DNA of 57,386 nucleotides, taken from the IMG/VR virus record IMGVR_UViG_3300010157_000038, one strand, 5' to 3'. Made by a program: the position numbers and the translations under genes. The notes beneath the pieces are model-generated. The model was not told the DNA's origin. It saw only the letters and a list, made by a program, of their open reading frames with translations, and searched no databases. Each line of letters opens with the position of its first letter. Within the stretch, counting starts at the first letter, position 1. Origin of the DNA: an uncultured virus (IMG/VR IMGVR_UViG_3300010157_000038). Lineage: Duplodnaviria; Heunggongvirae; Uroviricota; Caudoviricetes. Of the stretch, positions 5,664-16,331 are shown piece by piece.

Positions 5664-5737
5664 TGGCCTGTGGTGTAATGGTAGCACAAGCGACTTTGAC
5701 TCGCTTAGTTTTGGTTCGATCCCAAGCAGGCCAGCCA
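5664..5737 (+). tRNA. tRNA-Gln(TTG)
   Basis: TGGCCTG/CAGGCCA acceptor, AGCGA-CTTTGAC-TCGCT anticodon arm, GGTTCGATCC, encoded CCA. Confidence 0.95.
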
Positions 5738-6457: not shown

Positions 6458-6532
6458 GCGGGCGTAGCTTAATGGCGAAGCATCACTTTTCCAAAGTGAA
6501 TATTGCAGGTTCGAGTCCTGTCGCCCGCTCCA
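6458..6532 (+). tRNA. tRNA-Gly(TCC)
   Basis: GCGGGCG/CGCCCGC acceptor, TCACT-TTTCCAA-AGTGA anticodon arm, GGTTCGAGTCC, TCCA end. Confidence 0.95.
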
Positions 6533-6539
6533 TATTATT

Positions 6540-7061
6540 ATGAAAGAAATAGCTCACGTTTTAGGAAATGGTCCTTCCAGAAAAGATTTTATAAACTCGC
6601 CAGACGGCGACATCTATGGCTGTAATCTCTCAGACTTCGCTCTTCCGCTGACGGCGTCGTTCATCATGGACAAAGTGGCGATCGATCACATTCACAATAA
6701 TAAAGTGAAACTTCCGTGGCCTATAATTCTTCCATGGGCGCTTGATCGAATTGCAGCAGAATGTCCATACCCACCGAAAGTAATCGACAAATTAGATACA
6801 GTTTTAAAGAATGGAGAATCTACTGGTCACTACGCAGTAGGATATTGCATAAGGCGTTATAGAGAGGTGCATCTATGGGGATTCGATGCATTTAAGAAAG
6901 ATAGTATAGAGTCAGATTCGCATGTAAAAATACCTGAAGGACCTAAATCAGAAAAAAACTATATTGCTTGGAGAGGTAACTGGAAAAAACTCTTAAATAC
7001 AAATTCCGCAAAACAATCTAAGTTACTTCTTCATTATCAATCAGAAATAATTCCTCTTTAG
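6540..7061 (+). CDS. Rossmann-like protein resembling Maf/sialyltransferase-type folds
   Basis: VLGNGPS...YGCN...STG...VHLWGFD pattern. Confidence 0.55.
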   Translation: MKEIAHVLGNGPSRKDFINSPDGDIYGCNLSDFALPLTASFIMDKVAIDHIHNNKVKLPWPIILPWALDRIAAECPYPPKVIDKLDTVLKNGESTGHYAVGYCIRRYREVHLWGFDAFKKDSIESDSHVKIPEGPKSEKNYIAWRGNWKKLLNTNSAKQSKLLLHYQSEIIPL

Positions 7062-7106
7062 TTACAGTATATATAGATTAGTAATAAGTTATTTGATATA
7101 TTTTAT

Positions 7107-7230
7107 AGGGACTCTGTCACCAAAAGCAAATAAGCGGAGTCGACCCGCACATAGCGTAGGTTTGAGTGTGAGACGAATCATAGCACCCAATTATGATTAT
7201 TTGAAGGTTCGAGTCCTTCAGTCCCTGCCA
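7107..7230 (+). ncRNA. tRNA-like RNA, 124 nt, non-canonical core
   Basis: AGGGACT/AGTCCCT acceptor stem + G + CCA; T arm GAAGG-TTCGAGT-CCTTC; 8-bp arm with 7-nt loop at 7176-7198; no normal D arm. Confidence 0.75.
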
Positions 7231-7242
7231 ATTTTTTTAAAT

Positions 7243-7318
<76 letters not shown>

Positions 7319-7451
7319 TTTTATCCGTCTCAGTAGCGTAAAGCTCTAGTTTTTATGCTATATTGGGCCTTTTCTGATACATAATGCACAAAATCTAACC
7401 ATGATTGCTTGAAAAAAACGAACTCTATTTTTAACCAAAAACTAAAAAACA

Positions 7452-7487
7452 TATAAATAGATACTCCAATAATTATCTTTATAAATA
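7452..7487 (+). promoter_or_regulatory. Two tandem T4-type late promoters
   Basis: TATAAATA at 7452-7459 and 7480-7487. Confidence 0.75.
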
Positions 7488-7554
7488 GACAATAAGTACA
7501 TTTTTAACCTTTTGATGGCCAGTAGCGCTGTCATTTAGAACACAAACACAAACT

Positions 7555-8226
7555 ATGAAAAAACTATTAACACTGTTAGTCGCAATCGCTAGTTTCCTCA
7601 CAGTCAGCGCTTCAGCTCAAGAAGTTACAGCTAACGTAGGATATCAATCAAAACAGATCGAATTCGGTCAAGTAATTGACTCGAAAGGATCCTTCAATGT
7701 TGGAGCAAATGTCGCTGCCTACAATTTTGATCTAGGATTAAATGCTAAAAATTACGTAAGTAATCTTAAAGACAAAGTAGCACGTATTGATGTATTAGCT
7801 GATTATGCTTTTACAGCTCCTATTGCTGATCTTAAAGTAGGTATGGACTTAGCTTATCTAAGACATCCAGCTTTAAATGATGTAAAATATCATCCGCGCC
7901 CTTTTGTTTACTTCGGTAAAGATTTCTTAAATGTAGTAGCAAACTATGACACAAAGTCAGAACTCGCTAACATAGAAGTTAATGCTTCCAAGACTTTCCC
8001 TCTTTATGGAGCTATTGGTTTAAAGCCTGGAGTATTCGTTGGTTATACTGACGTATCAAACGAACTTCCAAAGTCTGTTAAATCTATCCAATACAAGAAT
8101 GGATACCTCGGTGGTTCTATGTCATTAGTATTCAAAGGCTTATCCGTAGGAGCAGAGGCTCTTCACAACGGTAAACTCAATGCTAATACATTAGCTTGGA
8201 ACGCAGGTTATTCCTTAAAGTTCTAA
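7555..8226 (+). CDS. Outer-membrane beta-barrel (porin-like) protein
   Basis: Sec signal ending ASA, amphipathic strands, C-terminal WNAGYSLKF signature. Confidence 0.75.
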   Translation: MKKLLTLLVAIASFLTVSASAQEVTANVGYQSKQIEFGQVIDSKGSFNVGANVAAYNFDLGLNAKNYVSNLKDKVARIDVLADYAFTAPIADLKVGMDLAYLRHPALNDVKYHPRPFVYFGKDFLNVVANYDTKSELANIEVNASKTFPLYGAIGLKPGVFVGYTDVSNELPKSVKSIQYKNGYLGGSMSLVFKGLSVGAEALHNGKLNANTLAWNAGYSLKF

Positions 8227-14941: not shown

Positions 14942-15263
14942 CTATAAACTTTACTTAGATGATTTAAAAATTCCAGACGCTATAGATTGGATTATTGTTA
15001 GAAGTTATCAAGAATTTATACAGACTATTACTGAAAACGGACTTCCTATTTTTTTATCTTTAGACTATGATCTATGTGATATAACTTTTGTTGAAAATCA
15101 AGTCTCTGAAAAAACAGGATATGATTGCACTAGATGGTTACTAGATTACTGTATGACAAATAAGTTAAAATTTCCAAACTATATGATTCACTCGACTGAT
15201 GCAGTTGGAAAAGACAATATACAATACCTTATTAACGCTTACGGCCGCCACCTCGTATTATGA
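14925..15263 (+). CDS. Cyclic-phosphate-processing receiver-domain protein
   Basis: LYLDD, IVRSYQEF, LSLDYDL, KTGYD, IHST pattern. Confidence 0.7.
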   Translation: MKTLDNYKLYLDDLKIPDAIDWIIVRSYQEFIQTITENGLPIFLSLDYDLCDITFVENQVSEKTGYDCTRWLLDYCMTNKLKFPNYMIHSTDAVGKDNIQYLINAYGRHLVL

Positions 15264-16331
15264 AGTAGGTGGCTGATTCGTTTGAACTGGCGTTGTAGCT
15301 TGTGTTGTAGCAATAATGTTAGCTTGAGGTTGCGAGGGTACTATATTTGTAATAGGATTGTTTGGTGTATACGACGTATACGGATGACTCACGTGAAACT
15401 CGCCAGTTTTTGGATCAATCATTACCATTACGAGAATAAGTACGCCCATTAAAGTTGCTACTACCCAAAAAGGTATCGTTGCAGCAATATACGCTAGACC
15501 GAGTAAAGCTACTCCAGATAAAATAAAGCTAGGCGACCTTAGCAGAAGACCTACTAATAAAACTACGATACCTATGCCACCTAAAGACTTTACGAGCCAA
15601 CCGAGCATTTCTGATTTCTGTTGTTCTTTAGCCACACTTACTGCGCTTACGGCCTGCTTTTGAAGTTGAATTTTCTCACTGTCTTGATTAGCTTTTAACT
15701 GAGCTAAAATTTCTTGTTGTTCTGACCTAAGCTTAACTTTTTCAGCCTCTTTGGTTTTAACCTCTTGATCTGCTTTTTCATAAGCAGCGGCGGCAGCTTC
15801 TCCTAATTTAATCTTTGCTTCATACTTTTGAGCTATAGCCTGTTCTGTCTTTTTGCGATCTAATTCTATGTCATCTTCTATAGCCTTTCGCCTCTCATCG
15901 GTAATCGGCAGAAGCCTAGCCATGTTCTCTTTAGCTTTTAAATTAGCTATTAATACTCGAGTGTCCATATGGGTTACATCTTCTGTAGACTTAAAGATAC
16001 CATAGTTAATCTCAGAAATTTGCGCAAAATTAGTATCATCAATCTGATCTCTAGCTTTATACGCGTCAGCTAATTGCTCCCTAAACTTAGAGTATTGCGC
16101 ATCCAAAGATTGCTTAACTTGTTCAGTCTTCTTGTTTAGCTCATCGATCTTATCTATAGCTTTAACTGTAGAAGAAGCAGCAGTCACTGGAGCGGCTTTA
16201 TCTACTGAACCACTGGCCGACATATTTGCCCCTAAAAACGATTTAATATTATTAGGGAAAGTCTGACAGCCTGCTAATAATAACAGCCAAATTCCAAATA
16301 CTAAAGACATTTTAAAGTTATAAGTACGCAT
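15258..16331 (-). CDS. Lipoprotein with long coiled coil and C-terminal TM helices
   Basis: LLLAGC lipobox, K/E/Q/A-rich middle, ~3 hydrophobic segments, P/T/Q tail. Confidence 0.75.
   Translation of the reverse strand: MRTYNFKMSLVFGIWLLLLAGCQTFPNNIKSFLGANMSASGSVDKAAPVTAASSTVKAIDKIDELNKKTEQVKQSLDAQYSKFREQLADAYKARDQIDDTNFAQISEINYGIFKSTEDVTHMDTRVLIANLKAKENMARLLPITDERRKAIEDDIELDRKKTEQAIAQKYEAKIKLGEAAAAAYEKADQEVKTKEAEKVKLRSEQQEILAQLKANQDSEKIQLQKQAVSAVSVAKEQQKSEMLGWLVKSLGGIGIVVLLVGLLLRSPSFILSGVALLGLAYIAATIPFWVVATLMGVLILVMVMIDPKTGEFHVSHPYTSYTPNNPITNIVPSQPQANIIATTQATTPVQTNQPPTS

Follow-up and report, generated by a model that had tools for sequence, protein, structure and literature searches.

A candidate non-decoding tRNA mimic with a Trp-type acceptor end in the tRNA cluster of a freshwater T4-like phage

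The stretch of DNA analyzed here (57,386 nucleotides, called the window from now on) encodes homologues of the T4 proteins gp32, gp5 and gp6, and of other baseplate (wedge), tail and tail fibre proteins. Its gp6 has 38% identity to that of the Methylophilales phage Melnitz and 36% to that of Pelagibacter phage HTVC008M, and the public runs containing the stretch are freshwater and lake metagenomes. The source is a freshwater T4-like myovirus. An identical IMG/VR contig bears a giant-virus bin label (GVMAG) despite the T4-like tailed-phage genes, which looks like a case of mis-binning. Three tRNA genes were called in the window, all of them on the plus strand and all three with an encoded CCA. 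In the cluster that they form, and on the same strand, lies a 124-nt element (window 7107-7230) that resembles a tRNA at its ends. The features of the locus are the following.

5664..5737, plus strand: tRNA-Gln(TTG), called by ARAGORN
6458..6532, plus strand: tRNA-Gly(TCC), called by ARAGORN
7094..7102, plus strand: possible extended -10 element TGaTATATT, found by eye and unlisted by a consensus scan; weak
Directly 5' of A7107, plus strand: predicted RNase P cut
7107..7113, plus strand: 5' strand of the acceptor stem, AGGGACT, with 7 of 7 Watson-Crick pairs to AGTCCCT at 7220-7226
7114..7160, plus strand: extra 47-nt segment from the acceptor stem to the D-like region, containing the GCGG/CCGC hairpin
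7117-7120 and 7168-7171, plus strand: TCAC and GTGA, both present in the sequence
7134-7148, plus strand: GCGG/CCGC hairpin, read from the sequence
7161..7177, plus strand: possible D-like arm TTTG/CGAA, its 9-nt loop devoid of the typical GG, from the ARAGORN drawing of a deletion variant
7176-7183 and 7191-7198, plus strand: 8-bp arm at the anticodon-arm position, AATCATAG and TTATGATT, with 7 Watson-Crick pairs and one G-T
7184-7190, plus strand: loop at the anticodon position, CACCCAA, with CCC central and A at the place of U33, read from the sequence
7199..7202, plus strand: 4-nt linker ATTT at the variable-loop position, read from the sequence
7203..7219, plus strand: T arm GAAGG-TTCGAGT-CCTTC, 5 of 5 pairs, read from the sequence
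7220..7230, plus strand: 3' strand of the acceptor stem, AGTCCCT, discriminator G7227 and encoded CCA (7228-7230), read from the sequence
7231..7242, plus strand: 12-nt A/T spacer to the next tRNA, read from the sequence
7243..7318, plus strand: tRNA-Gly(GCC), called by ARAGORN and by Rfam (69.4 bits)

The order of parts, read from the sequence, is therefore AGGGACT, 62 nt, AATCATAG-CACCCAA-TTATGATT, ATTT, GAAGG-TTCGAGT-CCTTC, AGTCCCT, G and CCA. An earlier reading of the letters alone (the sequence-only reading) had described the perfect acceptor stem, the G discriminator, the CCA, the T arm, the 8-bp arm and the CACCCAA loop, and had set the element 12 nt before tRNA-Gly(GCC); each of these parts was found where it had been placed, and the next tRNA does start at 7243. 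Among the canonical tRNA features, the element has the 7-bp acceptor stem, a T arm with a TTCRANN loop, the discriminator and the CCA, and it fails at U33 and at the D arm with G18 G19 two nucleotides past the acceptor stem. The nearest D-like arm starts 47 nt beyond the acceptor strand and its loop is without GG. The loop of the 8-bp arm is taken by the mitochondrial mode of ARAGORN as an anticodon, ccc.

When the upstream DNA was shuffled 20000 times, the exact acceptor 5' strand came to lie 96-260 nt ahead of the 3' strand on 91 occasions; this long-range pairing is not a product of chance. The T arm is the sole one in the window outside the called tRNAs, and a strict scan (T arm closed by a perfect 7-bp stem at a distance of 96-260 nt) gave the element as the only match in the window. 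Applied to other phages, the same scan gave 2 matches over 765,574 control bases, neither of them with NCCA after. In Synechococcus phage S-PM2 (L112, 520-723) the strict scan marked a T arm and a 3' strand with a perfect 7-nt partner 204 nt upstream; this match is inside the tRNA cluster and corresponds probably to two adjacent tRNAs with similar ends.

No detector and no known Rfam family claims the element, as came out of the Rfam and ARAGORN searches that the sequence-only reading had named as its checks. ARAGORN in standard mode found the three tRNAs of the window and none at the element, and its intron modes made no call there. Rfam at gathering score reported only the three tRNAs in the window, and RF00005 had no match on 7107-7230, even with E values up to 10 allowed. 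Over 6900-7450, Rfam at E up to 10 returned only sub-threshold fragments over the T arm. The tmRNA model scored 5.1 bits on the element (threshold 47) and RF02553 (YrlA) 20.9 bits (threshold 69), the latter match spanning the T arm and reaching into the D arm of the following tRNA.

Several known classes were considered and rejected. The calls made by ARAGORN in mitochondrial mode or with a lowered threshold were only partial, with acceptor pairings poorer than the perfect 7-bp stem, and a tRNA-His(gtg) came up at lowered threshold only, on a different and imperfect acceptor. A class II tRNA was discarded by hand, there being no acceptable anticodon arm in 7114-7175. For a tmRNA, in one or two pieces, the tmRNA option of ARAGORN gave 0 genes, the Rfam score was sub-threshold and no tag reading frame was found. 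An intron, either of group I or in the anticodon loop, does not fit, since the additional nucleotides are on the D side and the intron modes of ARAGORN are silent; besides, a group I intron is far larger than 47 nt. The exclusion of both tmRNA and group I intron had already been proposed and is upheld here by ARAGORN, Rfam and size. A YrlA or Y RNA-like molecule was set aside as well, the gathering score of RF02553 being missed.

We have examined the folding of the middle part. The 62 nt from the acceptor strand to the 8-bp arm fold at -10.0 kcal/mol versus -12.7 +/- 2.9 for shuffles, and 83% of 500 shuffles fold equally well or better. The RNA of the whole element had a z of -1.97, with 7 of 200 shuffles as good. 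The acceptor stem is the sole well-supported helix of the unconstrained ensemble (pair probabilities 0.77-1.0), the T arm and the 8-bp arm reaching only about 0.15-0.24. When internal deletions were made in silico, ARAGORN called a tRNA in 14 of 1404 variants. The tRNA-Gly(ccc) calls appear on removing about 44-49 nt from near position 10, and the ARAGORN drawing of the deletion variant has, after a weak D-like arm, an anticodon stem of 5 bp and a variable region of 7 nt. This leaves two structural models, model A with the 8-bp arm (-30.4 kcal/mol) and model B, close to a cloverleaf, in which 47 nt separate the acceptor stem from the D stem and the D-like arm is forced (-24.3 kcal/mol). The D-like arm of model B competes with the two outermost base pairs of the 8-bp helix. 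Our preferred reading of the extra sequence is a stretch of about 47 nt that separates the acceptor stem from a weak D-like arm. Since models A and B both lack U33 and the GG of the D loop, ordinary decoding is unlikely.

These results modify the sequence-only reading, which had proposed a rebuilt core in which the D arm was replaced by ~60 nt with the GCGG/CCGC hairpin and a possible TCAC/GTGA closing helix. The extra sequence is indeed there, but the idea of a folded domain found no support, as the segment folds no better than shuffles and the hairpin is broken in a related strain. As for the replacement of the D arm, both pairs of motifs are present, whereas the alternative keeps a weak D-like arm and turns the change into a 47-nt insertion. 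On the minus strand the GCGG/CCGC hairpin (window 7134-7148) makes a terminator-like site, a G+C stem and then TTATTTGCTT. From this site to about 10.7 kb the minus strand has no ORF of at least 60 aa, and no ORF of at least 150 aa is found beyond it before 15258-16331.

A pattern made of the T loop and AGTCCCTG was found at 3 places when one genome per GTDB species was searched. Two are tRNA-Trp(CCA) genes and the other is a copy of the 3' half of a tRNA-Trp, and one actinobacterial tRNA-Trp has exactly AGGGACT/AGTCCCT-G, as the element does. That the matches are tRNA-Trp indicates a frame of Trp type in the element (A1-U72, G2-C71, G3-C70 and G73). Glycine identity resides in U73, G1-C72 and C2-G71, and this set is absent. 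The element is tRNA-derived, with a Trp-type acceptor and G73, and not Gly-type despite the central CCC; the earlier remark that it lacks Gly identity was thus correct, its acceptor and G73 being those of a tRNA-Trp. The 3'-half copy is on a Myxococcota MAG contig (L074, L075), 7 kb from an intact tRNA-Trp, which is the pattern of the attachment site of an integrated element.

Transcription of the element together with tRNA-Gly(GCC) is probable, judging by the common strand, the 12-nt spacing and a scan of the plus strand that found no terminator-like site in the spacer. A plus-strand site of this kind is found inside the tRNA-Gln, at 5688-5706. T4-type late-promoter motifs (TATAAATA) are located at 7452-7459 and 7480-7487 on the plus strand, upstream of the gene at 7555; the window has 12 such motifs versus 6.6 expected. 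An RNA-library contig identical to the window starts at 7509 and enters the gene at 7555. In the RNA run X13 the element itself had no contig on it, the matching ones being only tRNA-Gly-like contigs of other contexts and one over 7509-7560; contigs cannot show absence. One X13 contig of 489 nt matches 7243-7323 exactly (the tRNA-Gly(GCC) plus 5 nt) with unrelated sequence upstream, which indicates that the same tRNA-Gly sequence exists in another genome, possibly that of the host.

The distribution of the element is narrow. A DNA search of the phage collection matched nothing but tRNA T arms, over 29% of the query at most. Three exact patterns of the element were found in IMG/VR only in the identical contig, and the exact-pattern search of the GTDB genomes had no match. 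For 33 nt that span the insert, searched with one free position, the outcome was the identical IMG/VR contig only and nothing in GTDB. The 15-mer of the hairpin occurs at 52 places, 51 of which share merely 15-18 nt with the element and were taken as chance. There is no second copy of the insert among the loci L001-L056. A spurious 82-aa ORF over the element gave 147 matches in a protein search; the 9 inspected among the 120 listed corresponded to the tRNA-Gly part only.

We have also searched by synteny, with the upstream 173-aa, peptidase-like and downstream proteins in IMG/VR and with a 2-sequence alignment in metagenomes. The two IMG/VR relatives end before the site of the element. In the three metagenome relatives the element is absent 3' of the same 173-aa gene, namely L061 and L062 (77-80% protein identity) and L063 (58%). 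In L061 and L062 unrelated sequence with no tRNA comes after the homologue of this gene. In L063 it lies between a tRNA-Gly(TCC) and a tRNA-Arg(CCG), the latter (921-998) occupying the place of the element. Right 3' of this tRNA-Arg(CCG), from about 1036, L063 has an open frame that is possibly a mobile endonuclease. With the exact matches reduced to the identical contig and these three relatives devoid of it, the element is confined to a narrow lineage, and the comparison indicates that the tRNA cluster gains and loses members.

A diverged strain, roughly 93% identical to the window, was found in run X7. Its 768-nt contig covers 6540-7271 with 52 substitutions and 5 gap letters, and the element is present; runs X4 and X6 gave only short identical pieces. 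Forty of the 52 substitutions are listed, all at or before 7166, and 5 of them are in the first 60 nt of the element. In the acceptor stem, 7111 A>G keeps the pair as G-U. The change 7146 C>A breaks the GCGG/CCGC hairpin, the only one rich in G+C, and the others are 7128 A>G, 7156 G>C and 7166 G>A. Two indels also fall in the element, an extra T after 7177 and a 2-nt loss at 7197. The remaining 12 substitutions would lie in 7167-7242, since from 7243 on the window is covered by another contig, identical to it. With these 12 so placed, the element differs by about 13% (17 or more positions), versus 2.3% for the last 351 nt of the gene (8 substitutions) and 2.2% for the 45-nt upstream spacer (1 substitution). 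Part of the differences being obtained by subtraction, the element appears to diverge faster than its flanks between the two strains, which can mean relaxed constraint or a mosaic patch from a more distant relative. Taken alone, the indels would re-register the arm of model A into an uninterrupted longer helix, if nothing else differs; in model B they would shorten the variable region from 7 to 5 nt, the 12 unlisted differences applying here too. Within the 173-aa ORF of the same contig, a 132-nt patch (6579-6710) has 26 substitutions and 2 indels, about 20%, while the rest of the gene is at about 2%; it looks like a mosaic recombination patch.

A parallel is found in T4. The annotation of NC_000866 includes rnaC (species 1 RNA), of 139 nt (70908-71046; L065 4909-5047), and rnaD, of 119 nt, beside a tRNA-Arg, and the tRNA cluster contains the homing endonuclease gene segB. 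The passages of the literature that deal with these small stable cluster RNAs still call their role unknown (PMC3014915, PMC9697503). A 2022 study describes them, in the part concerned, as late RNAs confirmed by northern blot and of unknown function (PMC9697503), and a passage of a 2025 paper again calls the function unknown (PMC12685909). Our literature search on species 1 RNA in phage found nothing, and among the matches listed for tRNA-like stable RNAs in phage tRNA clusters there was no element such as ours. The T arm of rnaC is CCGGG-TTCGAAT-CCCGG, a 10-bp hairpin stands one nucleotide 5' of it, and a long hairpin is found at the place of the D arm, with a z of -4.57 for the RNA. An alignment of 8 Tevenvirinae sequences of different genera gave 44 consensus pairs, 22 of them with compensatory changes; a fold kept in this way indicates that T4-like phages do maintain such RNAs. 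No Rfam family matches rnaC and, with a fold so well supported (L065, L066-L072), a curated family may be deserved. By annotation it is often found among tRNA-Trp, tRNA-Phe and tRNA-Gly genes, and it stands directly 5' of a tRNA-Gly in three phages, Karamvirus and CF-SP2 by annotation and KM16 by sequence. Its 748 blastn records all come from phages of enterobacteria and relatives of these.

The comparison with the non-tRNA RNAs of T4, already made in the sequence-only reading, was apt, as rnaC and the element have their parts in the same order. A covariance model of rnaC run on the window had the element as the first of 19 matches, over the full model length, with 14.1 bits and an E of 0.24. 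However, the class II tRNA-Leu of phage Mosig gets 13.6 bits from the same model, so that these scores denote a generic tRNA likeness only and do not establish membership in the rnaC family. When deletions were applied to rnaC in silico, 0 of 1612 variants were called a tRNA; of the two, the element is the more tRNA-like. T arms outside called tRNAs were also sought in other phages. The T4 region has one, that of rnaC, Melnitz has one inside an apparent coding sequence, the scanned part of Desulfovibrio phage 7757 has one, and none were found in HTVC008M, Mosig or S-PM2.

Our favoured reading of the element, to which we give a probability of roughly 45%, is that of an RNase P-processed, non-decoding tRNA mimic. 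It should not be able to decode, given the lack of U33 and of a canonical D arm and the 47 extra nt. In this reading the element and tRNA-Gly(GCC) would share a transcript, with RNase P cleavage at A7107 and at the start of the tRNA-Gly, and the 12-nt trailer would be trimmed back to the CCA, giving a stable RNA of about 124 nt. Such a product could offer its tRNA-like acceptor end to tRNA-binding factors of the host or of the phage, and the retained parts (the acceptor stacked on the T arm, G73 and the CCA) would be those that tRNA-processing enzymes recognise. A role as decoy against anticodon nucleases or tRNA sensors is putative. In favour of a mimic we count the intact acceptor, T arm, G73 and CCA, the uninterrupted 8-bp helix at the anticodon position and defects that are not random and fall on decoding positions. 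To these we add the rnaC fold maintained in Tevenvirinae, whose model has the element as its best match in the window, and the X7 strain, which still has the element and keeps the acceptor pair with 7111 A>G. We count against it the absence in L061-L063, the faster change than in the flanks, the hairpin-breaking substitution of X7, an insert that, unlike that of rnaC, has no fold beyond shuffles, and a score with the rnaC model at the level of a tRNA-Leu.

It is also quite possible that we are looking at a tRNA gene recently disrupted and now drifting, any RNA from it being functionless. A Trp-type tRNA would have been acquired, an insertion or rearrangement of ~47 nt would have occurred at the acceptor/D junction, and U33 would have changed to A along with changes in the anticodon and the D loop. 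The narrow lineage, with the three related lineages examined devoid of the element, and the divergence faster than in the flanks, hairpin-breaking change included, would be expected of such a pseudogene. So would the unstructured insert, whose removal (44-49 nt) restores tRNA calls by ARAGORN in 14 of 1404 variants, and the turnover of the cluster, seen in the tRNA-Arg at the same place in L063. It is harder to reconcile with drift that the acceptor, T arm, CCA and 8-bp arm are defect-free while the likeness to a D arm was lost in the middle, or that the element persists in a strain differing at 17 or more of its positions; moreover, phage genomes usually shed dead DNA fast.

The other explanations seem much less probable. 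That the element is a true homologue of rnaC by descent, diverged beyond what sequence can detect, is improbable in our view: the order of parts and the T4-like tRNA-cluster setting are the same, the element is the best full-length match of the window to the rnaC model and the hairpin loops share AGC...CAA, but the 14.1 bits (E 0.24) are close to the 13.6 of an unrelated class II tRNA and the blastn range of rnaC is limited to phages of enterobacteria and kin. Furthermore, no T arm outside the called tRNAs was found in HTVC008M, Mosig or S-PM2, the one in Melnitz is in apparent coding sequence, and rnaC has U-U mismatches, a 6-nt loop and no CCA, with 0 of 1612 deletion variants called a tRNA. 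It is very improbable that the element decodes as a functional tRNA of unusual form, reading GGG for instance, expanded on the D side and charged with Trp or Gly. The A in place of a near-universal U33, the D-like loop without GG, the 47 extra nt, the lack of any Rfam tRNA match at E up to 10, the silence of ARAGORN in standard and intron modes and the missing Gly identity elements (U73, G1-C72 and C2-G71) weigh more here than the 7-nt loop with central CCC, the 5-bp inner stem, the Trp-type acceptor set with encoded CCA, and the position between tRNA-Gly(TCC) and tRNA-Gly(GCC). The long ORFs of the window are normal under table 11, so nothing points to recoding. We give equally little credit to the extra 47 nt being a small mobile insertion module or a recombination scar, with an incidental tRNA-like frame. 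T4 has segB in its tRNA cluster and L063 an open frame immediately behind the tRNA that occupies the corresponding site; however, the 33-nt insert pattern is only in the identical IMG/VR contig and not in GTDB, there is no second copy in L001-L056, no flanking repeat longer than 2 nt is visible, and an attachment-site copy would exclude the 5' acceptor strand.

Within the mimic reading, a stronger version can be proposed, although we find it rather doubtful. Distant branches of T4-like phages, the Tevenvirinae with rnaC and a freshwater relative of the Melnitz / pelagimyophage group, would independently have turned tRNA genes into long non-decoding RNAs processed by RNase P, keeping only the acceptor/T-arm module and one long arm, and the element would be a purpose-built Trp-end mimic and not a relic. 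With the full acceptor identity set of tRNA-Trp and the CCA, it could be charged by, or bind and hold, a host factor that reads the Trp end; TrpRS, a toxin or a defence nuclease could be such a factor. A second RNA with the plan of rnaC, in a T4-like phage so distant from the first, would point to selection for the plan itself. The element is much nearer to a real tRNA than rnaC, and therefore a simpler molecule for testing what such RNAs bind. If it is a broken tRNA, it provides a clean example of the turnover of phage tRNA clusters, and a caution against reading relics as mimics.

Among known molecules, the element shares with the actinobacterial tRNA-Trp(CCA) an identical acceptor (AGGGACT/AGTCCCT), G73 and the T loop TTCGAGT. 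The anticodon loops, CTCCAAA in the tRNA-Trp and CACCCAA in the element, are identical at 5 of 7 positions, the differences being U33 to A and A36 to C. Unlike the tRNA-Trp, the element lacks a D arm at the usual distance and has 47 extra nt, A for U33, CCC in place of CCA and a stem of 8 bp instead of 5 bp. The YrlA or Y RNA-like RNAs (RF02553) also have a tRNA-like module, found in bacterial and phage RNAs. In YrlA this module is internal and the ends form a separate stem, whereas the ends of the element form the acceptor stem. The tRNA-like domain of tmRNA has, as here, an acceptor stem and a T arm with no decoding anticodon arm. The element differs by G3-C70 in place of G3-U70, the alanine signal of tmRNA, by having no tag reading frame and by its 124 nt, too short for a tmRNA. 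According to the passage concerned with them, Melnitz-like phages encode two-piece tmRNAs (PMC9004378). These belong to related marine myophages, and the element is unlike them in giving no tmRNA call. The closest parallel in build is with rnaC of T4, although common descent is not demonstrable from the sequences. Two U-U mismatches in the terminal stem, the absence of an encoded CCA and the 6-nt hairpin loop are found only in rnaC, whose insert is a stable covarying long hairpin while that of the element has no fold beyond shuffles. The two share the location in a tRNA cluster on the strand of the tRNAs, the lack of a covering Rfam family, and the succession of a terminal stem, a long D-side insert, a hairpin of 8-10 bp, a canonical T arm and the 3' strand of the terminal stem.
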